Notes: a model not told the origin generated them from the letters alone. 64,000 bases of DNA from an uncultured Mollicutes bacterium (GCA_900540365.1 UQFN01000005.1:21231-85230); one strand, 5' to 3'; counted from the stretch's first letter, positions 476-37,958 are shown. Numbers and translations are program-made.

Positions 476-505
476 AAAAAATACCTAAGTTTTAGATGTT
501 TTTTT
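476..505. repeat. Copy of dispersed ~28-nt intergenic motif (reverse orientation)
   Basis: aaaaaatacctaagttttagatgttttttt; overlaps the TAA of the 492..1274 gene. Confidence 0.45.
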
Positions 506-1274
506 CATTATTTAAAGACTTTTTTCTATTAATTAAATAAATAATCAGTGGACAAATTCCAATGTTAAAACGATTATTTTCTCTCTTTTTAAATATTAAA
601 TTATTTAAATAATTTGTACCAAATATAACTACGAAAAATAAAATATAAACTAGTGCTGCTAAAAACCATGAAAGAGTCATATTATTTGCTGAACTATTAA
701 AATAATTTAGAATCTCTCCATGGATTAAACGATAAATAAAGGTTGTTTTTACAAAACTTACTTTATCATAAATATAACCTTCTCCAGCTAAATATACATA
801 AATTAAAGTAATAGCAAAAAATATAAATGGTATATAAATATCTTTTAAATTATATTTTTCAACATTAAACAATAAATTGATTCCTAAAAATAATAAAGTA
901 AGGTGTGAAATAATCCCTAAAATAAATGTTGCTGGTGGTAGAGAATTAATTATTGAATTTGGAGAAACTACTCCCCCTATTAAATATCCAAGTCCTGCAA
1001 CAAAAGCAAAAATTCCACCAGTAAAATATAATTTTTTATAACCAACAACTATAATTCCACCAGTTAAAAAGTAAGCAATATGAGAAATTTCAACAGGTAC
1101 TGCACCATTGTTAAAAGCATAGCAGGTAAATTCAATTGCTTTCCATATGAAGATAACGCTTCCTAAAGAAAAAATTATTATCATTGTTGCTTTTTGATGC
1201 TTTTTTAAAATTATAGTTATAAAAATAAAACTTATTAAAGCAATAATTAGAAAACATGAATAAAGATATTCCAT
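492..1274 (-). CDS. Polytopic membrane protein (about 7 TM), family uncertain
   Basis: 260-aa ORF that is hydrophobic throughout. Loosely reminiscent of YwaF/TIGR02206-type proteins, but I cannot confirm this. Confidence 0.55.
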   Translation of the reverse strand: MEYLYSCFLIIALISFIFITIILKKHQKATMIIIFSLGSVIFIWKAIEFTCYAFNNGAVPVEISHIAYFLTGGIIVVGYKKLYFTGGIFAFVAGLGYLIGGVVSPNSIINSLPPATFILGIISHLTLLFLGINLLFNVEKYNLKDIYIPFIFFAITLIYVYLAGEGYIYDKVSFVKTTFIYRLIHGEILNYFNSSANNMTLSWFLAALVYILFFVVIFGTNYLNNLIFKKRENNRFNIGICPLIIYLINRKKSLNNEKNI

Positions 1275-1526: not shown

Positions 1527-2156
1527 ATGAAATTATTTAAAACTTCAAAACTTATAATGGTCACTGCCATTGCTTTAGGCTTAGCATCAGTCGTCGGTAT
1601 TGGTGTTGGTGCCTATATTATTACAGGAGGAAATAAAACCGCTGAAGTACCTGTTACTGATGATGATATAGTAATAACTAATAATGTTGTTAATTTAACA
1701 GCTTCTTTAAAATCAGATGATAATAAACTTGTCTATGAACCTACAGAAGCAGTAACCGGTAAAAGATTAAATTCAGATGGTAATGGCGACTTAGATGTTA
1801 CACTTGTTTTAAGTGTTGAAGCAACTTCAACAAATATTATTCCAACATTTACCGTATCTGTTGTATCAAGTTATAGCGCTGAATCACCTGAATTAACTGC
1901 TTTAAACACTTATTTAGTTAAACCATCTGATGTTACAGTTAGTAACACGGAATTTACTGGATCTGCTCCATACACTAAAGAAGTAAAATTAACTTGGGCT
2001 TGGGGTAGTGCTTTTAATACTACCGATCCTTGTACTTACTATAACAAAAAATCTGAAGAAGAAGTTTCAACTGCTACTTTAGTTAGCGAAATGGAAAGCT
2101 TTAGAGATAATGTTAATGGTAACACTTGGAAAATAGAAATTAATCCTGTAGAATAA
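1527..2156 (+). CDS. Cassette-1 protein A1: secreted/anchored protein with TasA/camelysin-style (SipW-dependent-type) signal peptide
   Basis: The track ORF starts at 1464, inside the putative promoter. ATG 1527 gives MKLFKTSKLIMVTAIALGLASVVGIGVGAYIITGG. This is a basic n-region plus an h-region ending G-x-G-A-Y, comparable to GGGTFAYFSD (camelysin) and GGGTWAAF (TasA). The gene lies directly 5' of a SipW-type peptidase. Confidence 0.65.
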   Translation: MKLFKTSKLIMVTAIALGLASVVGIGVGAYIITGGNKTAEVPVTDDDIVITNNVVNLTASLKSDDNKLVYEPTEAVTGKRLNSDGNGDLDVTLVLSVEATSTNIIPTFTVSVVSSYSAESPELTALNTYLVKPSDVTVSNTEFTGSAPYTKEVKLTWAWGSAFNTTDPCTYYNKKSEEEVSTATLVSEMESFRDNVNGNTWKIEINPVE

Positions 2157-2173
2157 ATAAATTTATTTTAACA

Positions 2174-3097
2174 ATGATTTTTTATATCATCTTAGGAATT
2201 GTTATAATCATTGATTTAATTATTGTTATTTTATTAATTACTACTTCTATTAAATTAATAAAAGAAATTAATTTAGGAAGTTATGATGCGCGTTTGGTTT
2301 TTGAACGACACGAAAAAGAAGTTAAATCAAAAAATAAAAAACACATTTTTCTAAGAAAATTTATTAATATAACTTCAAATTTATTAATTCTAATTATTGG
2401 AATAATGTTTTTAATTGGCGTTGTAGATAGTTTTGTTAACGTTTCAAATATCAAGACTTTCGCTGTTCCAACTGGTTCAATGTCGTATAAAAATGAAGAA
2501 AATACTTATTTAGTAGAAAACAATTTAAATAACCAAATACAAATAAATGATTTAGTATTTGTTAAAAAAATTAATTCCTTAGATGATTTAAAACTTTATG
2601 ACATTATTTGTTATAAAGATGATACTCGTAAGATTAACATTATCCATAGAGTAATCGAAATTAATGAAGATTATGTAAAAACTAAAGGCGATGCAAATAG
2701 TGAAATTGATTTAAAAAATATTTATTTTGATGACATTATTGGAAAATATATTGATGTTCGTGTTCCTTATATAGGTGGGTTTGTCTTATTTACATCTTCT
2801 AATTATGGCTTATTAACTTTTGCATCAGTTCTTCTTGCTTTATTAACTTATGCAATTAGTCGAAATAAAGTAGATGGTGTTGAAGAAAAAAGATTACAAT
2901 ACATTGATACTTATTTAGTTAATACAATAAACGAGTATGCAATTACTTCTAAATATGGTTATCTAGAAGTTAATAACAATAACTTTATATATAAAGAAAA
3001 AGAAGAAGAAAATACAGATATTTTTTCTTCTTCAATATTAAAAATTAACGATAAAGTTATTGCCCTTAGTAAAGGAGAAAAGAAAGATGAAAAATAA
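2174..3097 (+). CDS. sipW: Signal peptidase I, SipW / ER-archaeal type, enlarged (307 aa)
   Basis: Catalytic boxes appear in SipW order: VPTGSMS (Ser), IIHRVIE (His), TKGDAN (Asp). There are N-terminal TM helices, a C-terminal TM (GLLTFASVLLALLTYAI) and a tail of about 80 aa. Confidence 0.8.
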   Translation: MIFYIILGIVIIIDLIIVILLITTSIKLIKEINLGSYDARLVFERHEKEVKSKNKKHIFLRKFINITSNLLILIIGIMFLIGVVDSFVNVSNIKTFAVPTGSMSYKNEENTYLVENNLNNQIQINDLVFVKKINSLDDLKLYDIICYKDDTRKINIIHRVIEINEDYVKTKGDANSEIDLKNIYFDDIIGKYIDVRVPYIGGFVLFTSSNYGLLTFASVLLALLTYAISRNKVDGVEEKRLQYIDTYLVNTINEYAITSKYGYLEVNNNNFIYKEKEEENTDIFSSSILKINDKVIALSKGEKKDEK

Positions 3098-4865
3098 ACT
3101 TAGTAAAAAAGAATGGTTATTTTTATCCTTATCGTTTTTTATTGCTTTAATGGTATTTTTAAGCGGACTAGGAATGGATGCTGGACATACTGTTTTTGCA
3201 AAAGGTAATATTTTTGAAGGTTTTGCTGAATTATTTCAAATTCCTAAAATAACTGCTAACGCTGGAATTTGGATTATGCTCTTATTATTTAGTATTGCCA
3301 TAATTACAACAAGTGTTGCTATATTGTATGTAAGAAGATATTTAATAAAACATGATAAAGATCCTAATTCACTTGTTTCATGGCTATATTATATTGGTTT
3401 ATTTATAGCTTCATTTGCTTTAATGTTAGCAATTGGAACTCTTTTTCAAATTCCTAATGGACGTATTGAAACATATGGATTAACTTTAACTTATGTTTTT
3501 GGTGCATTAGTTATTGGAGTTTTACTTTTTGCAATTATTGCTATATTCTTTTGGGCTTTAATTGGGACTTTACTTTATATTTACCAACCAACCGTTCATC
3601 CTTCTAAACCATTAGTTGATGTATCTAAAGATTATGATGAAAAAGAAGACAAAGTAACTAATGATGAGCCATTAAAAAATACTTTATTAGGTAATAATAA
3701 CCAAACAATTAATACAAACTTGACTCCTGTAAGCACTGGTTCTTCTTTATTTAATAATGGAGTAATTGCTTCTAAAGAAAAAGTTTTTACTAATTTAGTA
3801 GCAATTGACGAAGAAGGTCCAATGAAATTTTTTGATGAAAATAAAGAAAAAATTACCTTAAAAGATTTAGTTGTTAATTTACAAATTTATTTAGCAAATG
3901 TTCATAACTTGTATTACAACAAAAATGAACTTGCTCAATTTATTGCAGGAATGAACGCATCTAAATTAATTATTTTAGAAGGTATCTCTGGAACTGGTAA
4001 ATCTTCTTTACCAAGATATTTTGCTAAATTTATTGGAGAAGATGCTTTCTTTGAACCAATTCAAGTTACTTATAAAGAAAAATCTGATTTACTTGGTTAT
4101 TATAATGAATTAACTGGTAGATATGTCGAAACTAATTTCTTAAAAGAACTTTATCGTGCAAGTATGAATACTGAACGTTTAAATTTAATGGTTCTTGATG
4201 AAATGAATATTTCTCGTATTGAATATTATTTTGCTGACTTTTTATCAGTTATGGAATTCCCTGAAAATGAACGTCAAATTCCAATTATGTCATTACCAAG
4301 CGATTATGATGCTCCAATAAATTTAAAAGATGGGATTTTAAACATAACTCCTAACACTTATTTTATAGGAACCGCTAATAAAGATGATTCTACTTTTACT
4401 ATTACTGATAAAGTTATTGATAGAGCGATTGTCATTGATTTTGAAGATACACAAGTTGAAGCTAAATATGATAAAAATATAACTCCTATTAGTTTATCTT
4501 ATGATGAATTACATAATTTATTTAACGATGCTTTAAAAACTCATCCTTTCAAAACTAAAGATCGTGAAGTGTTTTTAAGTTTATTAAAATTTATTAGTGA
4601 AGAATTGGGTATTGTTTCTGGTAACCGTTTAATTAAACAAATAGATTTAATGGTTCCAGTTTATAATTCAATGGAAATTGATTATACAATTTGCCTTGAT
4701 TATTTCTTAGCTAATAAAGTTTTAAGAAAACTTGATGTTGTTTATGATTCATCTTTAAAAAATCAATTAACTAAATTATTAAAGAAACTTGATGAATTAT
4801 ATTTAAAAGATCAATTTTTATATTCAAAACGTCTAATTACTCGTTTTATTAGGAGAATTAGTTAA
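3087..4865 (+). CDS. Membrane-anchored AAA+ NTPase of the McrB / AAA_5 (dynein-related) type
   Basis: RBS AAAGGAG lies 9 nt before ATG 3087, and the start overlaps the sipW stop by 11 nt. The protein has 4-5 N-terminal TM helices (aa ~15-185) and an Asn/Thr-rich linker. Motifs: Walker A GISGTGKSS, Walker B LMVLDEMN, and FIGTANKDDSTFTITDKVIDRA, which resembles the McrB MNxxDRS region. Confidence 0.7.
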   Translation: MKNKLSKKEWLFLSLSFFIALMVFLSGLGMDAGHTVFAKGNIFEGFAELFQIPKITANAGIWIMLLLFSIAIITTSVAILYVRRYLIKHDKDPNSLVSWLYYIGLFIASFALMLAIGTLFQIPNGRIETYGLTLTYVFGALVIGVLLFAIIAIFFWALIGTLLYIYQPTVHPSKPLVDVSKDYDEKEDKVTNDEPLKNTLLGNNNQTINTNLTPVSTGSSLFNNGVIASKEKVFTNLVAIDEEGPMKFFDENKEKITLKDLVVNLQIYLANVHNLYYNKNELAQFIAGMNASKLIILEGISGTGKSSLPRYFAKFIGEDAFFEPIQVTYKEKSDLLGYYNELTGRYVETNFLKELYRASMNTERLNLMVLDEMNISRIEYYFADFLSVMEFPENERQIPIMSLPSDYDAPINLKDGILNITPNTYFIGTANKDDSTFTITDKVIDRAIVIDFEDTQVEAKYDKNITPISLSYDELHNLFNDALKTHPFKTKDREVFLSLLKFISEELGIVSGNRLIKQIDLMVPVYNSMEIDYTICLDYFLANKVLRKLDVVYDSSLKNQLTKLLKKLDELYLKDQFLYSKRLITRFIRRIS

Positions 4866-5968
4866 TGAAAGAACGTACAATTTATCAAAATAATTTCCAA
4901 CTTCAAACAATTTATGAAATTAAATCTCTTTTAAGCCACGTCTATCATATCCTAAACTCTTATAAAGTAGATTTAAAACATTTTGATAATATTGTACGTA
5001 TTGAAGATTTTAAAAAATATGATCATAAATTAGTTAAAGAAAGTTTAAAAGATTCACGTTTATTTGGTAACCAAAATAATAATATTTATTTAAAACGTGT
5101 ACATTCTTATACTTATGAAACTGATTATGATATATACGAAAATCGATTTATTGTTTTCTTAGTAAAATATTTAAAAGAGACTCTTCTTGAATATTGCTAT
5201 CGTAAACAAAGCATTAAACTTCCATTTTTAAATACTGGGATTAGTTATGGAGAATTTGGAACTTATTCCTTACTTAAAAAATATTCTTTAGATACTTTAA
5301 ATAATAATTTTAATGATTCTATCGATGAATTTTCAAATTTAATCGGCGTTATAAATAATTTACTTAAAAAAGATTTCTTTAATAAAATTAAGCCTTTAAA
5401 TTCAAATGAAATATATCCAACTAATCTTTTATTACAAGATCAAAATTATTCTTTTTGTTATTTTTTCTATCTTGATATGATGAGAAATAATTTAGAAATA
5501 AATAACAAATTTAAATTAAGTTTAAAAAATAAACTTAAGGAACTTCAACAAAATTCATTTTTAACAACTAGTGATGGTTTTAAATTTAAAAAAGATGATT
5601 TTCTTTTTATTTTTAAAGAAAGTGAATATGGTTATAAGTTAATAATTCAAAATGAATTAATTTCATCTTTACATGAATATGACTTAAAGTTTGATGTTAA
5701 CTTATTTTTAGTAAAGTTAGTTATTATTAATGATCAAAAAAAATATAATTTCATGATTAATAATCTTGAAAAAGTCATTGAAATTATATATTCCTTAACT
5801 TCAATATTTAAAAAATCTCCTCTTATTTGTCCAATTTGTGGAGAAGAATTATTAACTGATAATAATTATTGTCATATTTGTCATGCTAAATGGGATAATT
5901 TAACAAACTCAGATGTTGTTTGGGTTTTTAACCCTTATGAAATATCTAAGGAGGTAGTATATGAATAA
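4865..5968 (+). CDS. Partner of the AAA+ gene: possible McrC-N/DUF2357-like region plus C-terminal zinc ribbon; no nuclease motif recognised
   Basis: The ATG overlaps the preceding TAA (TAATG). YDIYENRFIVFLVKYLKETL resembles the ENR helix I recall from DUF2357/McrC N-domains (memory only). CPICGEELLTDNNYCHICHAKW is a CxxC-x10-CxxC zinc ribbon. I find no clear PD-(D/E)xK triad. Confidence 0.5.
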   Translation: MKERTIYQNNFQLQTIYEIKSLLSHVYHILNSYKVDLKHFDNIVRIEDFKKYDHKLVKESLKDSRLFGNQNNNIYLKRVHSYTYETDYDIYENRFIVFLVKYLKETLLEYCYRKQSIKLPFLNTGISYGEFGTYSLLKKYSLDTLNNNFNDSIDEFSNLIGVINNLLKKDFFNKIKPLNSNEIYPTNLLLQDQNYSFCYFFYLDMMRNNLEINNKFKLSLKNKLKELQQNSFLTTSDGFKFKKDDFLFIFKESEYGYKLIIQNELISSLHEYDLKFDVNLFLVKLVIINDQKKYNFMINNLEKVIEIIYSLTSIFKKSPLICPICGEELLTDNNYCHICHAKWDNLTNSDVVWVFNPYEISKEVVYE

Positions 5969-7076
5969 ATTTAAACGTTTTTTAAAAGTTTTATTTTTAA
6001 GCGCTAGTATAAGTTTATTACCTAGTTGTGGGATTTTTGGTAATCAATATGGGGGAGTAATGATTTCAGGAATCACTGCTACAACTAATGCTAATGGTGA
6101 GACTGAATTAACAATTACTTTTACTGATGAAGATATTGAACCTGTTACTTTTGTTATTCCTCAAGGAGAACAAGGTGAAACTGGGGCTCAAGGTGCTCCA
6201 GGAGTAGGAATTTCCACAATTAATGTTTTTCCTTCGGAAGATGGTACATATTCGACAATAGTTATTACATATACTGATTCTTCTATTCCTTCAACTTCTT
6301 TTATTGTTGAAAATGGTGTTAGTGTTATAAATATTACTTCATCAATTAATATAGAAAATAACTCTACAATAATTGAATTTCACTTATCTAATGGTGAAAC
6401 TAAACAATTTGAAATTAAAAATGGTAAAGATGGAGTTGGTATTGAAAGTGTTATTGAAGAAAGAAAAGAAAATGGAGATGTTGTAATTACAATTACTTAT
6501 ACTGATGGTAGAGAACCTAGTGTTATTACTTTACCTTATAAAAATGGTGAAGATGGTCGAGGAATTCAATCAATAATCGGAACACAAAACGGAAACAACT
6601 ATGTGATTACAATTATCTTTACTGATGGAACTTCAACTGAATTAACTCCTATTGAATTACCAGAAACTACTAAATGGTTATATGGTCAAGGTGCTCCTAA
6701 CTTTAGAGTTGAAGAAGAAGCTAATCCCGGTGATTATTATTTTGATTTAGAAAATTACATTATTTACTTATATGATGGGGCAAATTTTAATCCAATTATT
6801 AATTTAACAGATATTCCTTCTTCTACTAAAAAGTATACTGTTAGTTTTGATGCTAATGGAGGAAGTTTTACTTCTTCTATTCCAACAACAATTACTGTTG
6901 ATGCAGGAAAACCAATTGATGCAAGTAGAATTCCAACTTGTTATAAAGAAAATTGTAAATTTATTGGATATTATACAACTCCTGAAGGTCCACTTAATCC
7001 TTTAAGTGGAAAACTTACCGATTTAGTTCCTATTTATAGTGACTATACGTTTTATGCTTCTTATGAGGAAATTTAA
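5961..7076 (+). CDS. Lipoprotein with collagen-like G-x-y triplets, five ~38-aa internal repeats, a tail-fibre-like segment and one Listeria-Bacteroides (Flg_new) repeat
   Basis: RBS AAGGAGG. Lipobox SLLPSCG. Collagen-like run GEQGETGAQGAPGVG. Repeat units end in NGKDGVG and NGEDGRG (ITFTDE.., VITYTDS.., ITITYTDG.., ITIIFTDG..). NPGDYYFDLENYIIYLYDG resembles phage fibre tips. C-terminal YTVSFDANGG...FIGYYT...YTFYASY is the Flg_new repeat. Confidence 0.7.
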   Translation: MNKFKRFLKVLFLSASISLLPSCGIFGNQYGGVMISGITATTNANGETELTITFTDEDIEPVTFVIPQGEQGETGAQGAPGVGISTINVFPSEDGTYSTIVITYTDSSIPSTSFIVENGVSVINITSSINIENNSTIIEFHLSNGETKQFEIKNGKDGVGIESVIEERKENGDVVITITYTDGREPSVITLPYKNGEDGRGIQSIIGTQNGNNYVITIIFTDGTSTELTPIELPETTKWLYGQGAPNFRVEEEANPGDYYFDLENYIIYLYDGANFNPIINLTDIPSSTKKYTVSFDANGGSFTSSIPTTITVDAGKPIDASRIPTCYKENCKFIGYYTTPEGPLNPLSGKLTDLVPIYSDYTFYASYEEI

Positions 7077-7087
7077 AATATTTTAAT

Positions 7088-7786
7088 ATGAAATTAATCA
7101 AAAGCAAAAAAATAGTATTTTCTATATTAAGTTTAATTGGAATTAGTTTAACTATTTCTACTGCTTTTGGTATTTATACAATCGTTGGAACAAGTAATAA
7201 ATCTATACTTGTTAATGATGAAGATATTATTATCAATAACTATAGTGATTTGTTAGTCTTACAAACATTAGGTAGTAACGATAAAATGTATACAGCTTAT
7301 GACTTAATTGTTAGCGATGAAATAGTTTTACCTTTTTTAATTAAAACTGATACTAAATATGATGATGTTTTATCTTCAGGCGGAATGAGAATTGAATTTA
7401 ATGTTCCAAATGAAAGTTTATTTAACTATACTCAACATAAATTAATTAATGAAAAAAATTTCTTTATATCAATTATTGGTAAACAAGTTTATGAAATGAA
7501 TCCTTCAACTAATTATACCTATTTAAAAAATAATGTTGCTTATAGTATTTTTGAAGTCGATTATACAAATAATAAATTTAATATTCATCTTCCTTTTACA
7601 AGAGATCATAGTGAAATTAGTAATTTTAATATTTGGGATTTAAAAGGAAATATTATAAATAACGAAGCTAGTTTTAGTTTAAAATTTGATTTTGATATCA
7701 TTGATGAATCTTTAGGATATTCAACTTTATTTAGTCCTAGTGATTTTAATAATTTTAAAATTGATATTTTTATTGAGGTATATTGA
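7088..7786 (+). CDS. Cassette-1 protein B1 with TasA-style signal peptide
   Basis: N-terminus is MKLIKSKKIVFSILSLIGISLTISTAFGIYTIVG. 232 aa. The TGA stop is overlapped by the next gene. Confidence 0.6.
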   Translation: MKLIKSKKIVFSILSLIGISLTISTAFGIYTIVGTSNKSILVNDEDIIINNYSDLLVLQTLGSNDKMYTAYDLIVSDEIVLPFLIKTDTKYDDVLSSGGMRIEFNVPNESLFNYTQHKLINEKNFFISIIGKQVYEMNPSTNYTYLKNNVAYSIFEVDYTNNKFNIHLPFTRDHSEISNFNIWDLKGNIINNEASFSLKFDFDIIDESLGYSTLFSPSDFNNFKIDIFIEVY

Positions 7787-7788
7787 TT

Positions 7789-10254
7789 ATGAAAAAGTTT
7801 AATAAATTTTCTTTAACTTTATCCATAATATGCCTTAGTTTATTAGCAACTACTAGTATAGCATTTGCTAGTTATATGATTGCTGAACTTACTTATAATG
7901 ATTTTACATCTTCGGATTTAATTAGCAATGATAATTCAAGATTACATCAAATTATTTTTATAGATGATTCAACGCAAGTTGGTGAACTTTATGTTAAACC
8001 TGATAGTAAAATTGATTTAAGTGATGTTCCATATCTATTTAATTCCAATAATGAATTATTAGAATGGAAAGATAGCTCTGGATCAACAAAAATTAGTTTA
8101 ACTCAATCATTTACACCAACTTCTGATACAACTTTAACTGCTTCAGTTGTTTCTAAAACTGATTTAAATAGTGCTGTAAACGTTGAAAGTGGCTCAGGAG
8201 TATCAGTTTCTAGTAATTCTGTAACAATAAATCAAACTACATCTAGTGGTACATCTAATATAGTATCAATTAGCGGAAATATTGATAAAACAATTACGTC
8301 ACAAAGTTATGATGCATTTGGCTCAAATAATGTTTTTGCTGATCTAAGCGACAAGGAATCATTTTTTAGACCTGATAGAAAAAATCAAGCAAGTGGAAAC
8401 AATACTATTGGATTATCAGATAATACATTAGCAAACAAGATAAACTTATCAGGTGATTTAGTAATCACTAATTCAACTTTTAATATAAGTGCTTGGACAG
8501 GGTTTTATAATAGTTACGATTATTCGCAAATAAATTTCCAAGGCTATATAATTGGTAGTTACACACAGCTTGATTTATGTGGAAATAATTTGATTGTTGG
8601 CAACGGAGCAACCTTAAATGCTTATGGTCAAATTGTTGATAGCGTAGGCGGTGGTAAAATTATCGTTGAAAAAGGAGGGACTTTAAAATCAACCTTTGTT
8701 GTTGAAGATCATGTTCACGAGAGACACACTCCTGTTATATACGCATATGGTGGCAGTATTTTTTCAATGTATCGTATGGCATATTTAAATTGCGATATCG
8801 AATTTAGATATGGTTCTTCTGCTTATGGAATTTTGAGAATGGATTTTGGTGGCAATAATGATAATTTTTATGATGGGGAATTAAAACTTATTGGTACCGA
8901 CTCTTCATCATATATTCAAATGAATTCAAATAAAACTGATGGATATATTTTAAGAGAACATACAATTGATGCTGGTGTTCAAAGTGCAATATCTAGTAAT
9001 GATTTTTCTAAAAATAATCTTTTAAATCAAAAATATAAATATTCTTTTAATAACTTAGATATTACGATTAATCCACCAAAATTTAATATTTCATTTACTT
9101 CAGTACTAATTACTTTAAAATTCGATATAAATTTTGGTAAGGGAAACAATTTCATCCCACCATATTTTGATTTCTATTTATATGATACAAAAGTGACATT
9201 AAAAGCTAATTATACATTTTTGACTGGTTCATATTTATATGTCGATTCAAAATCGATAATTAACTTATCTGGTGATTCTAGTGGACATTTTCAGGCTCCA
9301 TCTTTAATTTCAGGTAAATTTACTGAACACTATTATCAAGCTAAAGGTGGTTTAAATTTTGTTTCTCAAAAATGGTATTTTAACGATGCAGTTACTTCAA
9401 AAGATAAAGGATGGTGTCTAGGAAGAGATAGCGAAGATGGTGGATTGTATGGTATTGGAAATAATATCATCTATTCTAGTACAAAAGTATTTTGGGGCTA
9501 TTTAAATAGAAGTAAACCAAGTTATTGCGATATGGAAGGTACTTTTACTTTTGATGATACTTATACTTCAACAACTACTAATGATAAAAAATATATGCTT
9601 GGTGGAAATATAAATATTTCGAATATTGAGACTTTTAAAAATGTAGTAAATTCAAGAAATGATGTTTATTTATATGGATCTACTGCTAAAATTGGACCAT
9701 GTGGATCTTATGGTGTGCCCTATAACTTTGGCACACATATAGTAGGTGTTACAGACTATTTTATTTCACCATTAATTAGTGATGGAAATGTCTTAACTAA
9801 TATGAAGGATAAAACTAAAGTAAGAGAAGATTACGCTAGTTCTTATTCTTCGTATAGTACGGAAACTGGATTAGTTAATTATGGTGGAAAATATTATGCT
9901 TTTATGACTACTAATGCTGAAGGAACATCTTTTAATAATGATAATTCAGGACATGTTAATAAGAGTAATTATGGTAGCGATGAAAACGCCTATCGAAATG
10001 GATTAGATTCTTGTTATGGTACATTTGTTGAAGTAACTAATAATTCTGCTAGTCATTCAGTTATTTGGAATAAAACTGGAGAGACTTATGTTTATTATCG
10101 TGGTATCTTTTTACCATTTACTTATGGTAGTTTAAGTTCTTCTACGGTTAATATGAATAAAATGTCAATTCAAGCTGTTGGAAATCGTACAATAATTTGG
10201 AAAACTTCTAGTACTGATAATTATTATGGGCATGGAGCATGGTGGATATTATGA
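7789..10254 (+). CDS. Cassette-1 giant protein C1 (about 821 aa) with TasA-style signal peptide and beta-helix-like Gly/Asn-rich repeats
   Basis: ATG 7789 gives MKKFNKFSLTLSIICLSLLATTSIAFASYMIAE. Segments such as GNNLIVGNGATLNAYGQIVDSVGGGKIIVEKGGTLKS look like passenger-type beta-helix rungs. Confidence 0.65.
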   Translation: MKKFNKFSLTLSIICLSLLATTSIAFASYMIAELTYNDFTSSDLISNDNSRLHQIIFIDDSTQVGELYVKPDSKIDLSDVPYLFNSNNELLEWKDSSGSTKISLTQSFTPTSDTTLTASVVSKTDLNSAVNVESGSGVSVSSNSVTINQTTSSGTSNIVSISGNIDKTITSQSYDAFGSNNVFADLSDKESFFRPDRKNQASGNNTIGLSDNTLANKINLSGDLVITNSTFNISAWTGFYNSYDYSQINFQGYIIGSYTQLDLCGNNLIVGNGATLNAYGQIVDSVGGGKIIVEKGGTLKSTFVVEDHVHERHTPVIYAYGGSIFSMYRMAYLNCDIEFRYGSSAYGILRMDFGGNNDNFYDGELKLIGTDSSSYIQMNSNKTDGYILREHTIDAGVQSAISSNDFSKNNLLNQKYKYSFNNLDITINPPKFNISFTSVLITLKFDINFGKGNNFIPPYFDFYLYDTKVTLKANYTFLTGSYLYVDSKSIINLSGDSSGHFQAPSLISGKFTEHYYQAKGGLNFVSQKWYFNDAVTSKDKGWCLGRDSEDGGLYGIGNNIIYSSTKVFWGYLNRSKPSYCDMEGTFTFDDTYTSTTTNDKKYMLGGNINISNIETFKNVVNSRNDVYLYGSTAKIGPCGSYGVPYNFGTHIVGVTDYFISPLISDGNVLTNMKDKTKVREDYASSYSSYSTETGLVNYGGKYYAFMTTNAEGTSFNNDNSGHVNKSNYGSDENAYRNGLDSCYGTFVEVTNNSASHSVIWNKTGETYVYYRGIFLPFTYGSLSSSTVNMNKMSIQAVGNRTIIWKTSSTDNYYGHGAWWIL

Positions 10255-10985
10255 TAAATGAAAATAAAATGATTGAAGTTAAAAATTTAAATAAATCCTA
10301 TGGTAAACATCAAGTGCTCTTTGATGTTAATTTTGATATTTATGAAGGGGAGTTATTTGGCTTAATTGGTAAAAATGGAGCTGGAAAATCTACTACTATT
10401 GAATGTATTTTAGGAGCTAAAAAATTCGATAGTGGAGAAATTTTAGTTGATCATAAAAATATTAATAAAGATGCTTTAGAAATTAAAAAAATAATTGGTT
10501 ATGTTCCTAGTGAACCAACTTGTTATTTAGATATGACTGGTTATGATTACTTAAATTTTGTTGGAAGTTTATATCAAGTAAGTTTTAAAACTTTTATCGA
10601 TAATGTTGATTTTTTAGTTAAATTATTTGATTTTTTAGAAAAAGATTTATATCGACCAATTAGAGAATATTCTCATGGTATGCAACAAAAGATATGTTTA
10701 ATGGCTTCTTTAATTCATAATCCTAAAATTTGGATTTTAGATGAACCAACAGTTGGTCTAGATCCTGTTGCTGCTAATGAATTAACTAAATTAATAAAAG
10801 AATTTATTAAACATAATAAATCTTGTTTTATTGCTTCACATAATATTGAGATGATTGCTAAATTATGTGACCGAGTTGCAATTGTTAAAGATGGAGAAAT
10901 TAGTGAAATTATCGATTTAAAAAATAATCCAAATATGCGTAGTAAGATACCAAGTATTTTTATGAAAGTTTATAATTTATTATGA
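10251..10985 (+). CDS. ABC transporter ATP-binding protein (ABC-2 exporter type) with degenerate signature motif
   Basis: ATGA overlap with the C1 stop. Walker A is GKNGAGKST. The signature position reads YSHGMQQK instead of LSGGQ. Walker B is WILDEPTVGLD. Confidence 0.85.
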   Translation: MINENKMIEVKNLNKSYGKHQVLFDVNFDIYEGELFGLIGKNGAGKSTTIECILGAKKFDSGEILVDHKNINKDALEIKKIIGYVPSEPTCYLDMTGYDYLNFVGSLYQVSFKTFIDNVDFLVKLFDFLEKDLYRPIREYSHGMQQKICLMASLIHNPKIWILDEPTVGLDPVAANELTKLIKEFIKHNKSCFIASHNIEMIAKLCDRVAIVKDGEISEIIDLKNNPNMRSKIPSIFMKVYNLL

Positions 10986-12595
10986 TTACTTTAAAAATTG
11001 CTTTAAAAGAAATTATGTCATTAGCCTTTTTTAACAAAAAAGGTTATAAAAAGTATCTTTCGTTAGCTACTTCAATTATTTTAATGGCTTTTTTTATCTT
11101 CTTAGAATGTTTTTTATACATTATGATTTTTAATAAAGTCGATGTATTTATAGATTTAAATTATTCTTTAATTATTATTATTTTATCGATATTTACTTTT
11201 ATTGGAACAATCTATTCGATGATTACTTGTAATAAAATATTTTTCTCTAATAAAAAAGAAAGAATAATTTTAGGAATTTCTCCAGTTAATATTTTAGAAG
11301 TTATTATTGGAAAATTAATTTTTGTTTATTTAAAGACTTTTATTTATTTTACTTCAACCTTTTTTGTATTTGCTTTAACTTATGGAATTAAAGTTCAAAC
11401 AGATTTTATATATTTTATTTGGATGTTTCTTTCTATTTTTATTTTAAGTTTAATGAGTGTAGGATTAGGAATATTATTTACTATTCCTTTTAGAGAAATT
11501 ATTAAATTAGTAGTAAGGTTTAAAATTATTAGTTTTATTTTAATTGTTATTTTAATTATATTACTTGCTGTTGGATATAATTTATTAATGAAATTATTTA
11601 TTGATTTATTAAGAAATGCTTCTTTAGATACTTTATTTACAACTCAAAATGTAGAAACTTTAAAAAAAGTTGCTAATAGTTTATATCCTTTAAAAAGTGT
11701 TGTTGATTATGCTTTAGTAATTAATAGCGGAGTTAATGCTTTAATTATTTTAACTTTTAGTCTTTTATCTATTTTATTTGGAGTGTTCTTTTTCTACTTC
11801 TATTTAAAAAATTATTATCATAACGATGATCAAGCTAAAGATATTAATAAAGTAAAATCTAAAAAAGTAAAATTAATTTCTCCAATACAAGCTTTAATAA
11901 AAAAGGAATTTTTATTGTTATTAAATAATAATGATGGATTATTTTCATATATCTTTTTAGTAATTTTACAACCATTCCTTGTTTATAGCGTTATTTCTAG
12001 TTTAAATTTAATTTTTTCTACTGGTAATTTTATTTATATAAACACTTTATTTCCTGAAATTTATTTATGTGTTGATATTTTACCAATCTTATTATTTTTA
12101 TCAGTTATTAATATGACATCTTCAATGTCTTTAACAAAAGAACGTCAAACCTTAATCATTATGAAAACAATTCCAGTTTCCTTTTTTAAACAAGTATTAG
12201 TTAAACTAGGAGTAAATTTTGTTGTTTCATTAATATCATATATAGCAACATTAATTACTTTAATTGCTACAAAAGAAATTAGTTTATATACTTTCTTATT
12301 TTTAATTATTATTGGAACATTAGCTTTACTTTGTTTAAATATTATTTCAATTAAAAGTGATTTTAAATTTAAAGCAAATTCCGATTTATTATCAATTTTA
12401 GTTGGTTTTGTTTTCCCTGTTTTATATGTTGTAGTTGCCACAATATTTATAATTTTTATAGAAACTTCTCAAACTGAAATTTTCTTTTTAAGTATAATAG
12501 CTCTTTTAGAATTAATTACTTTAGGAATTCTACTAATTAAATTTAAATCAAAAATTACTGAACAATTTTTAAATTATGAGGGGGTAAGTCTATGA
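10982..12595 (+). CDS. ABC exporter permease, about 12 TM
   Basis: ATGA overlaps on both sides. The 537-aa protein is uniformly hydrophobic with two 6-TM halves. Confidence 0.7.
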   Translation: MITLKIALKEIMSLAFFNKKGYKKYLSLATSIILMAFFIFLECFLYIMIFNKVDVFIDLNYSLIIIILSIFTFIGTIYSMITCNKIFFSNKKERIILGISPVNILEVIIGKLIFVYLKTFIYFTSTFFVFALTYGIKVQTDFIYFIWMFLSIFILSLMSVGLGILFTIPFREIIKLVVRFKIISFILIVILIILLAVGYNLLMKLFIDLLRNASLDTLFTTQNVETLKKVANSLYPLKSVVDYALVINSGVNALIILTFSLLSILFGVFFFYFYLKNYYHNDDQAKDINKVKSKKVKLISPIQALIKKEFLLLLNNNDGLFSYIFLVILQPFLVYSVISSLNLIFSTGNFIYINTLFPEIYLCVDILPILLFLSVINMTSSMSLTKERQTLIIMKTIPVSFFKQVLVKLGVNFVVSLISYIATLITLIATKEISLYTFLFLIIIGTLALLCLNIISIKSDFKFKANSDLLSILVGFVFPVLYVVVATIFIIFIETSQTEIFFLSIIALLELITLGILLIKFKSKITEQFLNYEGVSL

Positions 12596-15117
12596 AAACT
12601 AAAGCTATTATTTTTCTATTAATTTTACCCTTAGTTATTTCTATTTTAGCTTTTGTATCTTCGAGCTTTTTTATTCGCGGAGTAGAACAAGATATAACTG
12701 CTATTAGTTGGAATTATAAATCTAATGAAGGTTTTTTAATTAGTGAAGGTAAAGTTAAACTAGAAGCTAAACCAATTTATGATGAACGTTATCCTTTAAG
12801 TGAAGGTAATAATTTAGTTTGGACTTTAAATAATAATGATTATTGTAAATTAGAAATTATTAATGATGAAACTTACTTAGTTCCTTTTTCTCCAGGAAGT
12901 ACAATTGTTACTTGTCAAAATGAAAAGCAAACAATTACACAATCATTTACAGCAGTAATTATTGGTGATGAAGGAGCGATTATTCTTAATCCAATAATTC
13001 CTTTTTCAAAAAATAGTATTTCTTCAACTAATTATGTTGGTTTATATGAATCAACAACTAGTTATGATAATAATCAAATTGATACTACTTTAAAACTTGA
13101 AGTTGAAATTATTGGAGGAAGTTCTTCTATTGCAACTTTAAGTGTTGATCATAGTGACAATATTGAATTTAATGTTGATAAAAAAGAAATTACTTTCTTA
13201 AAAGAAGGCGAAGCTTATTTACGTTTATATCGCAGTTATTCTTCTAAAGGTGAAGCGTATCTTAACTTTGATATTGTTAAGGCAGTGAATATTTATAATT
13301 ATGAAGGATTAATAAATGTCACTAATAAAACTAATAAAAAGTATCCTGCAGTTTTAAGAGTTAATTTAGAATCCTTCGATAATACTTATATTGTAAATAA
13401 AGATAATACTTTAACAAAAAAATCAAATGATACTGAACTATTTGGTCAACTTGATGAAAATAATAAAGTAAAGTCTTTTATTGATGATCTTTATATTTTT
13501 GAAACTACCTATAATCATGATTTTTTAAATAGTTGGAATGAGTCAGTCAAAAATAATTTGATAGAAAATGCCTATGAAACACCAATTATTCGTTATGCTG
13601 GAGTACATATTCAATCAGATTTTTATGGAAATGGTTTTACAATTAATACTCATGAATTAGTATATCCAAGTTTAACCCAATCGATTAATGTCGATGGTAA
13701 TACTATTGTTGTTCCTTTATTAAGTGATGAAGATTTATATCGTGGTCCATTAGCTTTTGTGACAATGGGAGATCCCAATTATATTTTTGATCAAACAATT
13801 CAAAAGCCAATTTTTACTATATTTGGACAAGATAATAGTTCATTTTATATTAACGATGATAATGTTACTGTTGATAATGTTCATTTTAAAGGTTGTGATT
13901 TTGGTAACAACTTAACTAATTTACAATATACTGGTTCAACTCTTGATATTAATGCTAACAATGTTGTAATTCAAAATAGTATTTTAGAAAATAATCGTAA
14001 TATAATTCGTTCATATTCAAGTAAAAATTTATTAATTGATAATTGCTTATTAAGAAATTCAATGGAATTTCTATTTAGAAGTGGATCTAATGAATTTAAT
14101 AAAGTGAATTATGATGAAAATGTTCGTTATTTAGGAGAAAATAATGTTTCATATATTACTTCAAAAAGTAATTATTTAAGTAAACAAATTTTTACTGATA
14201 ATGGTCTAGATGATATTTCTAAAAGTTATCGAGCCGATTCATTATTAACTAATTCTGCTGTAGTTAATACTCAAGCTAATGAATTTTTAAATACTCCATT
14301 ACAAGGTTATACTAAAGAAGAGTTTATTATTGGACAACAAACTATTCGTGAAGCATTAACTAACCTTGAAGGAATTTATGGTGAAAATAATAAAAAAGTT
14401 TATGCAGGAAATACTATTATTAATGATACTTATTTCCAAAATAGTGGAATTTCTGCAATTTCGATGGATACTTTATATCAAGGTCCATTCTTAGAAACTA
14501 ATATTACTTCTTTATTTATATTTTTATTAGGAATTTATACAAGTTTCCTTCCTAAAAATTTAGCCTTAACTAGTTATCCAACATTATTAACTTTAAGTGG
14601 AGATATAAGATTTTATGATTGGAAAAATAAAAATAATTTATATTTTGAATCTTTAGTTGATGAAGATATTGCTGGTTTAATAATTGCTCATGGTGGATTA
14701 GGTTCAAGTTTTGAAGTTAATATTAGTGAAGATGATTATTTACCAATTAAAAAGATCTTGTTAGATAATTATTCAAGTGATGTTTTAAGTAATGATCAAT
14801 TAAACATTCCAATCTATTTCCAAGGCGGAGGATATAATGCTAGTGAAGTTATTATTGATGAAGAATTAAAATCTTACTTTAATTCAATACCTTACGATAT
14901 TGATCCATTTGTATATTCATTAGATTTAAAACAAACTCCATCAACTCATTTTATGAGTGATCCACAAGCTAAATATGAGGCTATGAAAATTGCAATGTTA
15001 AGAGCGTCTTCGAATTTTATAGGTTTATATTCATATAAATTATTAACTTTAAATAATGAAGTTTCTAAATGGATTGGGGAAACTCCTAATATTAATGATT
15101 TAATTTCTAGAGCTTAA
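12592..15117 (+). CDS. Large secreted/anchored protein with Ig-like segment and right-handed beta-helix-like repeats
   Basis: N-terminus is MKTKAIIFLLILPLVISILAFVSSSFFIRG. GSTIVTCQNEKQTITQSFTAVIIG looks like a Big_2 domain. NNVVIQNSILENNRNIIRSYSSKNLLIDNCLLRNS looks like parallel beta-helix rungs. Confidence 0.6.
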   Translation: MKTKAIIFLLILPLVISILAFVSSSFFIRGVEQDITAISWNYKSNEGFLISEGKVKLEAKPIYDERYPLSEGNNLVWTLNNNDYCKLEIINDETYLVPFSPGSTIVTCQNEKQTITQSFTAVIIGDEGAIILNPIIPFSKNSISSTNYVGLYESTTSYDNNQIDTTLKLEVEIIGGSSSIATLSVDHSDNIEFNVDKKEITFLKEGEAYLRLYRSYSSKGEAYLNFDIVKAVNIYNYEGLINVTNKTNKKYPAVLRVNLESFDNTYIVNKDNTLTKKSNDTELFGQLDENNKVKSFIDDLYIFETTYNHDFLNSWNESVKNNLIENAYETPIIRYAGVHIQSDFYGNGFTINTHELVYPSLTQSINVDGNTIVVPLLSDEDLYRGPLAFVTMGDPNYIFDQTIQKPIFTIFGQDNSSFYINDDNVTVDNVHFKGCDFGNNLTNLQYTGSTLDINANNVVIQNSILENNRNIIRSYSSKNLLIDNCLLRNSMEFLFRSGSNEFNKVNYDENVRYLGENNVSYITSKSNYLSKQIFTDNGLDDISKSYRADSLLTNSAVVNTQANEFLNTPLQGYTKEEFIIGQQTIREALTNLEGIYGENNKKVYAGNTIINDTYFQNSGISAISMDTLYQGPFLETNITSLFIFLLGIYTSFLPKNLALTSYPTLLTLSGDIRFYDWKNKNNLYFESLVDEDIAGLIIAHGGLGSSFEVNISEDDYLPIKKILLDNYSSDVLSNDQLNIPIYFQGGGYNASEVIIDEELKSYFNSIPYDIDPFVYSLDLKQTPSTHFMSDPQAKYEAMKIAMLRASSNFIGLYSYKLLTLNNEVSKWIGETPNINDLISRA

Positions 15118-15152: not shown

Positions 15153-15200
15153 AAAAATTCTAATGAGTTTTCTCTTAATAATATGCTTTATTAATAAATT

Positions 15201-15224
15201 AAAAGCAGCTTGTTAGCTGCTTTT
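15201..15224. terminator. Bidirectional rho-independent terminator between convergent genes
   Basis: aaaa GCAGCT tgtt AGCTGC tttt: a 6-bp GC-containing stem flanked by an A-run and a T-run. Confidence 0.7.
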
Positions 15225-16413
15225 AATATTTAAATATTTCAATTTCCATATCACTAGTTGGATAAGAACAACATGGATGGAAGAAATGATATTTTTTATC
15301 AGTCATACGTAATTTCTCGTACTTAGTTGCTACATAAGTTCCTTTAATAATTCGACTTCTACAAAAACCACATCCACCTAAATGACATTTACTTCTAATA
15401 GGAAGTCCGCTTCTTTCTAAAGCTGTTAAAATAGTTTCGTTTGCATTAGCTTTAATTTCATAAACTTCATGCTCACAATTAACTTTAATATTATAAATAC
15501 TACTATCACTAATATCTAAATTAGTAGCTGTTCTTTCAATACGAATAAATTTCTTTTCTAAGTTAAGTTTTGATAACTCTTTATCTAAAAATTCAATCAT
15601 CGCACTAGGTCCAGCAGCAAAAATAGAATATTGTTCATCTTTTGGAGCATATTTCTTAATTAGATTAACATCAATAAATCCATGTTCATAATTAGGATTA
15701 TTTTCTTCACTTAAAACATAAACTACTTTTACTTTATGATTAGTGTTTTCTTCAATTTCTTTAAATTCTTTTTCAAATATTTTATCTTTTAATGTTCTTA
15801 TACCAAAAAGAATAGTTAAATTAAAGTCTTCACTTTTTTCATTAATAGCTTTTGCCATTGATAAAAATGGAGTAATACCAGTTCCTCCAGCTAGAGCAAT
15901 AACATTTTTAGCATCTCTTAATTTGTTATAAGTTAAATTTCCACCGACTTCACTAGCAATTAATTTATCATTAACTTTAGCTTCATCCAATAAATAAGAT
16001 GATAGTAAACCATCACTTTTTCTTTTAATAGTTACTTTATAAATATTATTTAAAGCTTCTTTTGGTGAAGATGATAAGGAATAAGTTCTAGCAACCACAT
16101 TATTTTTAGTTGCTACATCTTTAAACATAATTGAAATATATGATCCTGCTTTAAATGGAGCAAGTTCTTTTGTTTCACTTTCTTTATCATTAGTTAAAAC
16201 AAAAGTTTTAGTATCATAATTTTCTTCGATAATTTCTTTTATTACTAAATGTTGTTTTTCAGGATGAAAAATACGTGCTAAATGGTTAACATAATATTCT
16301 TCTTTTAAAGGTTTAGCAGGAGTATTTTCAATTGCTTCTAATCGATCACGTTTAAGATTTTTAAACTTCAACATGTCGAAAATTCCAATTAAACCAACTT
16401 TTACTTTTAACAT
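15223..16413 (-). CDS. Ferredoxin-NAD(P) reductase-type flavoprotein with C-terminal 2Fe-2S domain
   Basis: RTYSLSSSP is the FAD RxYS motif. GGTGITPFLSM is the NAD(P) site. The C-terminal Cys cluster is CHLGGCGFCRSR. Confidence 0.8.
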   Translation of the reverse strand: MLKVKVGLIGIFDMLKFKNLKRDRLEAIENTPAKPLKEEYYVNHLARIFHPEKQHLVIKEIIEENYDTKTFVLTNDKESETKELAPFKAGSYISIMFKDVATKNNVVARTYSLSSSPKEALNNIYKVTIKRKSDGLLSSYLLDEAKVNDKLIASEVGGNLTYNKLRDAKNVIALAGGTGITPFLSMAKAINEKSEDFNLTILFGIRTLKDKIFEKEFKEIEENTNHKVKVVYVLSEENNPNYEHGFIDVNLIKKYAPKDEQYSIFAAGPSAMIEFLDKELSKLNLEKKFIRIERTATNLDISDSSIYNIKVNCEHEVYEIKANANETILTALERSGLPIRSKCHLGGCGFCRSRIIKGTYVATKYEKLRMTDKKYHFFHPCCSYPTSDMEIEIFKY

Positions 16414-31742: not shown

Positions 31743-31753
31743 CTTTTTCCTCC

Positions 31754-35510: not shown

Positions 35511-36246
35511 TTGTCCCCTCAAATCTAGCTGTAAATTCTATATCAATAGTCCAATATTTACCATATTTTGTGAAATCTTGATACAAAGTAGTATATTTAG
35601 TTAATGTATTAGGTTTTACCTTTTCACTAGCATATGCAAAAATATCACCTAAATTAATTGTTATAACATATTCTTGAATTTTTAATCCTTCATACCCAGT
35701 TGCATTATCGACAAATGGATCGCTAACAGTATAAGGATAATAATCTAATAAATTTACAAAATTATTATTTGCATATAAATTAGATGAGATTGTAACATAT
35801 TTTGATAATGGTACTGCATTTTGATCAGTTGAAGTATCAGTAAGAATAGATATTTTTGCTCCTAAAACAAATCTAATATCACTAGGTAAAGTAAAATCAT
35901 TCACTTCACGGTGAAATATGACCTTAATTTCATCGTTTTTAACTAATTCATATTTATTAGTAACATTACTATAAGTACTTTTATAAAATTCTAAGCCTTC
36001 ATTTAAATCGGTTGAGGAATTTCCTTCTTCAAATAACATAAAAGTAGGAAACACTTGATTATCATGGGCATTTGCAAAATGTCCTAAGTTAGCTTTTGAT
36101 GATATATTAATTGGTATTCCAACTTCTTGAGATAAATCTCCAGCTTCACTACTATAAAAAACCCACACTCCAAATCCACTACCAACAAATAAAAAAGTAG
36201 TTAAAAAAGGAAGAACAGTTACTAATAATTTATTTTTAAACCACAT
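35503..36246 (-). CDS. Cassette-2 protein B2 with TasA-style signal peptide
   Basis: N-terminus is MWFKNKLLVTVLPFLTTFLFVGSGFGVWVFYSS. 247 aa. It overlaps the sipW-2 stop by 11 nt. Confidence 0.6.
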   Translation of the reverse strand: MWFKNKLLVTVLPFLTTFLFVGSGFGVWVFYSSEAGDLSQEVGIPINISSKANLGHFANAHDNQVFPTFMLFEEGNSSTDLNEGLEFYKSTYSNVTNKYELVKNDEIKVIFHREVNDFTLPSDIRFVLGAKISILTDTSTDQNAVPLSKYVTISSNLYANNNFVNLLDYYPYTVSDPFVDNATGYEGLKIQEYVITINLGDIFAYASEKVKPNTLTKYTTLYQDFTKYGKYWTIDIEFTARFEGTNG

Positions 36247-37270: not shown

Positions 37271-37301
37271 ATAAAAAGTAATATTTAAAAATAATTAATT
37301 A

Positions 37302-37928: not shown

Positions 37929-37958
37929 AAAAAAAATCCCCCTAAACTTTGTGCTTAG

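Follow-up and report, generated by a model that had tools for sequence, protein, structure and literature searches.

Organization of the Cassette

The 64,000-nucleotide stretch of DNA analyzed here (referred to as the window; UQFN01000005.1:21231-85230 of assembly GCA_900540365.1) comes from an uncultured Mollicutes bacterium and carries a cassette of ten intact open reading frames (ORFs), all in one direction between positions 1527 and 15117, which overlap or are separated by gaps of at most 17 nucleotides (nt) (Table 1). In order, the predicted products are a small exported protein (A1), a SipW-like signal peptidase, a membrane-anchored GTPase of the McrB family (g3), its McrC-like partner (g4), a lipoprotein (g5), two further exported proteins (B1 and C1), the ATPase and the permease of an ATP-binding cassette (ABC) exporter, and a large protein with one N-terminal hydrophobic segment (g10). 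Eight of the ten are membrane or exported proteins, and the cassette looks like one of several conserved envelope systems in RF39, Acholeplasmatales and related Bacilli.

The A1 and peptidase genes are 17 nt apart, those of the peptidase and g3 overlap by 11 nt, g3 and g4 share a single nucleotide (TAATG at 4865), and g4 and g5 overlap by 8 nt; g5 and B1 are then separated by 11 nt and B1 and C1 by 2 nt, and the C1/ABC ATPase, ABC ATPase/permease and permease/g10 junctions each overlap by 4 nt (ATGA at 10251, 10982 and 12592). The start of C1, the ATG at 7789, agrees with the public gene call. The co-directionality and the junctions listed in an original prediction, made from the sequence of the window, are reproduced exactly by the recomputed ORF coordinates, and the terminator that it placed near 15201 corresponds to a hairpin common to the cassette and a convergent downstream gene (Table 1). 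A terminator-like hairpin of 8 bp with a weak tail is also present inside the A1 coding region (1814-1832, plus strand), and such sites occur at chance frequency. The window has a guanine-plus-cytosine (GC) content of approximately 25% and reads normally with genetic code 11; at this composition, a scan for promoter consensus sequences was uninformative, returning 112 promoter-like sites where 125 ± 10 are expected by chance, and a scan of the window against Rfam found no RNA family. The GC content of the cassette matches that of its flanks, in which the genes are housekeeping genes (among them AsnA, CorA and dehydrogenases).

Table 1. Cassette genes and other features of the window, with products as predicted (aa, amino acids; TM, transmembrane).
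Feature	Coordinates	Strand	Description
A1	1527-2156	+	209 aa, exported protein
Peptidase	2174-3097	+	307 aa, SipW-like signal peptidase I
g3	3087-4865	+	592 aa, membrane-anchored McrB-family AAA+ GTPase
g4	4865-5968	+	367 aa, cytoplasmic, McrC-like
g5	5961-7076	+	371 aa, lipoprotein
B1	7088-7786	+	232 aa, exported protein
C1	7789-10254	+	821 aa, exported, beta-rich
ABC ATPase	10251-10985	+	ABC-2/DrrA-like
Permease	10982-12595	+	537 aa, polytopic, ~12 TM helices (hydropathy)
g10	12592-15117	+	841 aa, one N-terminal hydrophobic segment
Hairpin terminator	15198-15227		13-bp stem; common to cassette and convergent downstream gene
Neighbor outside the core	492-1274	-	Divergent, 260 aa, ~7 TM helices (hydropathy)
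A1-like gene	37302-37928	-	Box GSGFSAWYF; A1 profile 1e-12
Second SipW-like peptidase	36236-37270	-	344 aa; SipW profile 2e-70; NF046067 9e-13, 48.2 bits
B1-like gene	35503-36246	-	Box GSGFGVWVF
861-aa protein	32937-35522	-	Signal end SSAFAYFIFSDE

Signal Peptidase and Signal Box

The peptidase scores above the cutoffs of TIGR02228 (sigpep_I_arch; 61.6 bits versus 51.85) and Peptidase_S26 (23.2 bits versus 22.9), and its score with NF046067, the equivalog model for Bacillus SipW, is 52.6 bits, far under the cutoff of 190; judged by these models it is SipW-like and not a SipW orthologue. The catalytic pair consists of Ser and His (not Lys) and is accompanied by a GDxN..D box, and the catalytic residues (GSM-S, H-R and T-R-G-D-x-N..D) reach or come close to 90% conservation among 76 orthologues. 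The catalytic domain is preceded by an extra N-terminal TM helix with a basic loop and followed by a C-terminal TM helix and a cytoplasmic tail of approximately 78 residues. The enzyme is thus predicted to be an active, enlarged signal peptidase I of the endoplasmic reticulum (ER)/archaeal type, in agreement with the enlarged SipW-type peptidase originally proposed.

In A1, B1 and C1 alike, the n-region is basic, the hydrophobic segment behind it is approximately 16 residues long, and a short box comes next: GIGVG/AYIIT in A1, STAFG/IYTIV in B1 and SIAFA/SYMIA in C1 (the slash marks the presumed cut), with the consensus [AG]-[FV]-[AG]-x-Y-x-I. A box that directly adjoins a hydrophobic segment at the N-terminus was found in only six proteins of the window, each of them the product of a gene next to one of the two genes for SipW-like peptidases, the second of which is described below. 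The box is retained in orthologues at only 30-35% identity. Among 84 distinct loci that were mapped with profiles built from the window proteins, 184 of the 195 A1/B1-like proteins carry it, with a consensus that sharpens to G-F-[AS]-x-[WF]-[IV]-[IV], as do most of the C1-like proteins. By position, G occupies -2 in 79% of the sequences, F occupies -1 in 67%, and position 0 is A (60%) or S (33%); position +1 is A, S or T, position +2 is W (65%), F (27%) or Y (8%), and positions +3 and +4 are I or V. If the cut falls after position 0, the cleavage site would have a small residue at -3, an aromatic one at -2, a second small one at -1 and a second aromatic one at +2. The TasA site reads GGGTWA/AFND (that is, T-W-A/A-F) and that of camelysin GGGTFA/YFSD, and at the motif level it is supported that the register of the box is the TasA/camelysin cleavage register. 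The N-terminus of g10, ILAFV[ST][AS][ST][YF][FV]IR, was also considered as a box; it is similar, yet it fails the pattern.

Exported Proteins A1, B1 and C1

A1 is a divergent member of a family that ends in the motif F.WG..F...NP..YYN and forms 1-7 tandem paralogs in related loci, and it is the candidate for the main subunit. The B1 profile matches A1 at 4.9e-18, so that the two are distant paralogs. Small A1/B1-like genes lie upstream of C1-like genes in many loci, as B1 precedes C1 here. Searches of Pfam and NCBIfam at E ≤ 10 gave nothing meaningful for A1, B1, C1, g10 or the permease. An AlphaFold2 model of A1, built from a shallow alignment of 13 sequences, shows a beta-rich domain (predicted local distance difference test, pLDDT, 68.8; predicted template modeling score, pTM, 0.64; core 80-90), ahead of which the residues just after the box are unstructured. 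The model of C1 (pLDDT 73.3, pTM 0.78) is likewise beta-rich, and its N-terminal beta-grasp domain resembles the InlB B-repeat. In a Foldseek search with this model the top matches, weak and insignificant, were beta-helical adhesins such as HMW1 and Ag43, and C1 is a candidate adhesin or distal component. Its family is rare, with 17 clusters.

The McrBC-Like Pair g3 and g4

The g3 protein starts with four TM helices; an acidic low-complexity linker comes next and then, on the cytoplasmic side, a GTPase domain whose signature is N-K-D-D. The alignment of its family displays GxSGTGKSS (Walker A), VLDEMN (Walker B) and GTANKDDSTFTITDKVIDRA, and the signature loop reads GTAN-K-D-D-STFTITDKVIDRA; the two Walker motifs and GTAN-K-D-D-S vary little or not at all. 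Of 87 sequences, 80 have the signature N-x-D-[DE], and 77 of 82 have 4-5 TM helices. The protein matches the PADLOC defense-candidate model PDC-M26A at 3e-41, and scores 15.8 bits with the Pfam model AAA_5, under the cutoff of 22. A nucleic-acid-binding specificity domain was not found, the N-terminal 170 residues being made up of four hydrophobic helices that match nothing in the Protein Data Bank (PDB) or Pfam. From these motifs, g3 is assigned as a membrane-anchored AAA+ GTPase of the McrB family. Residues 31-41 of g3 (encoded within 3087-3600 of the window) contain an invariant Asp (D31) and a nearly invariant Asn-Pro (N41). They belong to the external loop that comes first in the membrane domain, and this loop is a candidate contact site for the peptidase or its substrates on the outer face.

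The g4 protein scores 39.2 bits with DUF2357, the N-terminal domain of McrC (cutoff 23.3), a match that is also precomputed on orthologues, and it ends in a zinc ribbon (CPxC...CxxC). Across 81 orthologues the segments YENRF and PTN..D..Y..CY.FY and four Cys residues are conserved, and no conserved D/E/K triad of a PD-(D/E)xK nuclease was seen; to judge from this alignment, g4 is a McrC-like partner without a conserved nuclease motif. Single-sequence searches of the PDB with g3 and g4 gave no match. A crude heptad test returned background values for g3 (0.56) and g4 (0.60) of the window, against a control median of 0.52, and 0.85-0.9 for some longer g4 orthologues, the only ones with a coiled-coil-like segment by this test. 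The original prediction passed over the identity of these two proteins, which are McrB/McrC-like by the PDC-M26A match, the Walker and N-x-D motifs and DUF2357; they are the most conserved and the most unusual parts of the cassette.

Lipoprotein, ABC Exporter and g10

The lipobox of g5 (LLPSC) has a Cys that is conserved in 69 orthologues, and the protein has G-x-x-G-rich repeats in its interior and ends in a repeat of the Listeria-Bacteroides (Flg_new) type (27.4 bits, cutoff 27); it is a core component, present in 66 of the 84 loci. The ABC ATPase matches ABC_tran at 2e-28 and TIGR01188 at 1.9e-50, the latter below the cutoff of that model, and carries Walker A, Walker B and H-loop motifs (GKNGAGKST, ILDEP and SHN) together with a variant signature, YSHGMQQK. 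The original prediction of an exporter is upheld by ABC_tran and by the predicted helices of the permease, but its description of the signature as degenerate is not, since YSHGM[KQ]QK is found in 73 orthologues; the signature is a variant kept throughout the cassette family and not a decayed one. The permease always follows the ATPase, and one orthologue has a weak match to PF09847 (12TM_1). In g10, a TM or signal segment at residues 5-23 is followed by a large extracytoplasmic part, for which a weak match to DUF4957 suggests parallel-beta-helix-like repeats. Its conserved motifs are YGNGxTiN, GQDN, FYDxK and yyGGGxNxS, and the family is confined to the cassette (320 clusters among 1.84 billion representatives).

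Conservation and Distribution

The peptidase gene lies directly upstream of g3 in 74 of the 84 loci, and g4 lies directly downstream of g3 in all 84, at g3 identities of 32-54%; the McrBC-like pair is therefore integral to the cassette. The gene order is thus kept in related loci, a point on which the original prediction had made its reading depend. Most commonly the genes run [A1-like]n-peptidase-g3-g4-ABC-permease-g10-g5, and a pair of B1-like and C1-like genes may trail them. In 59 loci g4 is followed by the ABC ATPase and permease genes, and the order permease-g10-g5 is found in 51; many of the shortfalls in these counts of arrangements are due to contig ends. The window represents a minority arrangement, in which g5-B1-C1 lie between g4 and the ABC genes (g4 is followed by g5 in 15 loci), and loci with a C1 at 31-35% identity retain all ten genes in unchanged order. 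A1-like genes occur in 73 loci, usually as 2-3 tandem copies and as many as 7 in a row. Six loci (L028, L038, L040, L047, L049 and L080) have 5-7 tandem A1-like paralogs upstream of the peptidase, which look like sets of major and minor subunits or like antigenic diversification. One metagenome-assembled genome (MAG), CAJJXG01, carries two full cassettes (L011 and L047), one of the window type with a single A1 and the other of the common type with six tandem A1-like genes. In five loci (L082, L086, L087, L089 and L090), g3-g4-like pairs are present, but the peptidase and substrate genes are missing; the match of these loci is confined to the AAA domain of g3 (residues ~217-591), some of their McrC-like partners are much longer (790 aa), and they probably represent a different, soluble or CoCoNuT-like, N-terminal form.

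The g3 family comprises more than 7600 clusters at 90% identity and is found in at least 558 GTDB species genomes. The carriers are uncultured gut or rumen Bacilli labeled Mollicutes, Acholeplasmatales, Anaeroplasmataceae, Candidatus Enteromonas, Alloenteromonas, Onthovivens or Scatosoma, and further labels are 'Staphylococcus sp. CAG:324' and, for some bins, Clostridia. The chromosomal neighbors infC-rpmI-rplT and a Fic-like gene recur in four loci (L008, L019, L031 and L039), which indicates vertical inheritance in some species. The window would hold one copy of a widespread cassette that uncultured Mollicutes-like gut Bacilli inherit vertically. The full-length form of g3, with its TM helices, was absent from the plasmid and phage collections searched, in which only the AAA domain found matches, to soluble McrB-like ATPases. 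An origin of the cassette from a phage or plasmid was considered and rejected, given this absence from both collections and the lack of a viral match for C1.

Second Peptidase Cluster and Neighboring Genes

A mini-cluster on the minus strand of the window (32937-37970) is paralogous to the cassette and is without g3, g4, ABC or g10 genes (Table 1). The original prediction drew no link between the two, which are connected by the profile matches of the peptidase (2e-70) and of the A1-like protein (1e-12). The signal end of its 861-aa protein, SSAFAYFIFSDE, is close to the camelysin/TasA box. The mini-cluster may be a minimal version of the cassette, or its proteins may be served in trans by the main one. 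Directly downstream of it (29712-32617, minus strand) are encoded a 676-aa lipoprotein with repeated Listeria-Bacteroides-type units and, adjoining this, a helix-turn-helix protein of the XRE type with C-terminal TM helices.

The divergent gene at 492-1274 has the same place in L002, L004, L006, L011 and L012, among approximately ten loci in total, and is a lineage-specific neighbor outside the conserved core. The window is contained in a public 117-kb metagenomic contig (L001; ULOB01051052.1 of GCA_900522185.1). On this contig, just before the start of the window and a few kb upstream of the cassette, positions 4342-7405 contain a Schlafen/AlbA_2-HATPase_c_4 gene and a RhuM gene, that is, defense-island-like content beside otherwise housekeeping surroundings. 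Elsewhere in the window (41627-45201, minus strand), two genes with a 4-nt overlap resemble a pair of the SbcC/SbcD type; one encodes an 838-aa AAA_23/AAA_15 ATPase and the other a 353-aa calcineurin-like phosphoesterase.

Proposed Function and Alternative Explanations

The cassette is very probably a dedicated system for the export, processing and assembly of surface proteins. The favored model is that the A1-, B1- and C1-like precursors, in which the signal and box are observed, would enter the membrane by way of the basic-hydrophobic signal, and that the peptidase would cut within the box after the small residue (G-F-A/x-W), leaving, by analogy with TasA, a hydrophobic, beta-strand-like N-terminus. 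The released subunits may then assemble into a surface fiber or coat, perhaps, like TasA and BsaA, through donation of an N-terminal strand. Its major and minor subunits would come from the tandem A1 paralogs, with B1 as an adaptor and C1 as a large distal or adhesive protein. A hexamer of g3, which would have approximately 24 TM helices and be activated by g4 much as McrB is by McrC, could use GTP hydrolysis to power or gate extraction, assembly or turnover in the membrane; such a role would be unprecedented, and the pair would have shed any DNA-cutting function. The ABC exporter, g10 and g5 would be further conserved envelope components, possibly for the export of, or anchoring to, a second component. 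To the model as a whole, a system for assembling a surface fiber or coat that is driven or gated by a membrane GTPase, we give a probability of roughly 0.55. It is also tempting to speculate that a hexamer of the membrane McrB-type GTPase, activated by a nuclease-less McrC, is the motor of a new class of surface-filament assembly machines, with subunits of new families that the dedicated peptidase would mature, an idea that is possible but doubtful; these Bacilli would then have exapted the motor of a restriction enzyme to build their envelope.

The number of A1-like paralogs per locus, from one to seven in tandem, is typical of fiber and pilin subunits and was counted in favor of a fiber. The surface fiber or adhesin system of the original prediction is supported in its coupled cassette, its peptidase and its boxed exported proteins, whereas we infer fiber formation itself. 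Several results weigh against the assembly model. The TasA-style signal peptides that were originally proposed stand at the motif level, but TIGR04088, the profile of the SipW-cognate signal class, on which a literature search found nothing, has no match in A1, B1 or C1 at E ≤ 10, and the same holds for the TasA and camelysin (Peptidase_M73) models. When 96 A1-like members were scanned individually against NCBIfam, the matches were scattered by chance and none was to TasA, camelysin or TIGR04088, and a profile of these 96 sequences found neither TasA nor camelysin, nor any other significant match, in the PDB. The best Foldseek match of the A1 model in the PDB, for a model of moderate confidence, had E = 0.28 and a template modeling score below 0.3, and TasA, whose fold is a jellyroll, was absent from the matches; the C1 model had no significant neighbor in the PDB or BFVD and no viral match. 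Because neither of the two models (pLDDT 69 and 73) has a significant fold neighbor, a polymerizing fold is putative. The mature parts of A1, B1 and C1 are new families that are not detectably TasA-like by hidden Markov model (HMM) or by predicted fold; their dissimilarity to TasA had been noted by eye in the original prediction, and its description of C1 as beta-helix-like receives weak support from a model that is beta-rich and has no significant structural neighbor. In addition, the N-terminal segments could be uncleaved anchors, all carriers are uncultured MAGs, and we know of no McrB-family protein that takes part in secretion or assembly.

The alternative that fares best, although we hold it to be unlikely, is that the cassette processes or sheds membrane-anchored surface proteins, forming a variable coat of wall-poor cells without polymerization, and that the McrBC-like pair regulates this. 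The evidence on peptidase and substrates applies equally to such a system, the carrier lineages are Mollicutes-like, the divergent A1 paralogs could just as well reflect antigenic diversity, and the lack of a detected polymerizing fold suits it. However, the box with its I/V at +3/+4 is more conserved than a plain cleavage site requires, an energy-consuming hexameric GTPase is left unexplained, and the combination of tandem small paralogs and one large protein mirrors SipW fiber operons (PMC11580942).

More improbable still is a role in conflict or in defense against phages, of the type known from McrBC and CoCoNuT systems. Infection would then be detected by the membrane McrB-McrC pair, and the exported proteins, the ABC exporter and the peptidase would act as effectors or remodel the surface in response. 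The homology of g3 and g4 to McrB and McrC, the PADLOC match of g3 and the RhuM and Schlafen/AlbA_2 genes a few kb upstream point in this direction, the nearest AAA-domain relatives are found on plasmids, within CoCoNuT-like gene pairs, and the N-x-D-[DE] signature puts g3 near the CoCoNuT branch (as described by Bell et al., eLife 2024; PMC11090510). By contrast, no nuclease motif is conserved in g4 and no other nuclease is encoded in the cassette, TM helices take the place of the nucleic-acid-binding N-terminal domain in g3, and the products are mostly membrane or exported proteins. Defense islands are usually patchier than so stable a gene order, the chromosomal neighbors recur, and the full-length membrane form of g3 was absent from the plasmid and phage collections. 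The idea that an ordinary SipW/substrate operon has by chance received an unrelated McrBC-like pair and an ABC transporter, to which the mini-cluster without g3, g4 and ABC genes and the loci with g3-g4 alone might point, is disfavored to the point of being very improbable by the synteny, in which 74 of 84 loci have the peptidase gene immediately before g3, the gene after g4 belongs to ABC-permease or is g5, again in 74 of the 84, and stop and start codons overlap, at 32-54% identity, and by the different N-terminal form of the g3-g4-only loci, which match the AAA domain only.

If the assembly model is correct, an McrBC GTPase module would have a non-defense, membrane-coupled role. Three or four new protein families are defined here (A1/B1-like, C1-like, g10 and the TM form of McrB), and the box G-F-[AS]-x-[WF]-[IV]-[IV] could be used for genome-wide searches for substrates of the peptidase. 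To our knowledge, RF39, Acholeplasmatales and related Bacilli, which are abundant in human and animal guts and uncultured, are almost uncharacterized in their surface biology.

Comparison with Known Systems

Type IV and archaeal pili resemble the cassette by functional analogy only, in having anchored precursors, a dedicated peptidase, a cytoplasmic hexameric NTPase with a polytopic membrane part and paralogous subunits; they differ in that the cassette has no PilD-, PilB- or PilC-type proteins and that its box is on the C-terminal side of the hydrophobic segment. An interpretation in terms of type IV pilins was considered and rejected on these grounds, the box standing after and not before the hydrophobic segment. 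The sole pilin match of the 96-sequence A1 profile in the PDB, Natrinema PilA2, was non-significant (E = 0.026) and came from the hydrophobic N-terminus.

Canonical McrBC of E. coli K-12 shares with g3 and g4 an AAA+ GTPase with Walker A and B motifs and the McrB signature loop, and a downstream DUF2357 partner. By contrast, the cassette has TM helices in place of the DNA-binding domain and a zinc ribbon in place of the PD-(D/E)xK nuclease, and the pair is set in an operon for envelope proteins.

In Bacillus subtilis, sipW-tasA-(tapA) gives rise to SipW-dependent biofilm fibers. The sipW-bsaA-bsaB-bsaC operon of Clostridium perfringens, another source of such fibers, encodes small paralogous subunits and one larger protein (PMC11580942). 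Like both of these operons, the cassette places a dedicated ER/archaeal-type peptidase beside its substrates, has a box at the signal end and combines small paralogs with a larger protein, and, like them, it has neither an LPXTG motif nor a sortase. On the other hand, its mature proteins do not detectably resemble TasA, camelysin or BsaA in sequence or in fold, its peptidase is approximately 120 aa larger, and the membrane McrB-like GTPase, the McrC-like protein, the ABC exporter, g10 and the lipoprotein are all five absent from the Bacillus and Clostridium operons.

A further counterpart is found in a survey of McrBC systems, in which one branch has a GTPase signature cut down to NxD, with E or another D as the usual next residue, and the DUF2357 domain of McrC is described as plugging into the McrB hexamer and activating it (Bell et al., eLife 2024; PMC11090510). 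One paragraph of the survey names CoCoPALM, a class of McrBC systems linked to signal peptidases and to 'pilus assembly', in which McrB is fused to an FtsB-like TM and coiled-coil part and McrC has coiled coils as well, and defers its description to a future paper, for which a literature search found no follow-up. The cassette shares with CoCoPALM an McrB GTPase with the N-x-D-[DE] signature, a membrane-spanning N-terminal fusion, an McrC homologue and an adjacent gene of a signal peptidase family, and it differs in that g3 has 4-5 TM helices instead of an FtsB-like single helix, and only a short acidic linker. Compared with this published text description only, the cassette is probably CoCoPALM or a sister form. 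The undescribed composition that was originally claimed for it therefore stands in that no characterized counterpart exists, but not as regards the link between McrB and signal peptidases, which had already been named. SipW-type fiber operons are known and the McrB-signal peptidase link has been named but not described, whereas the machinery added here is without a characterized counterpart, and a first concrete parts list for the CoCoPALM class would follow from the cassette.

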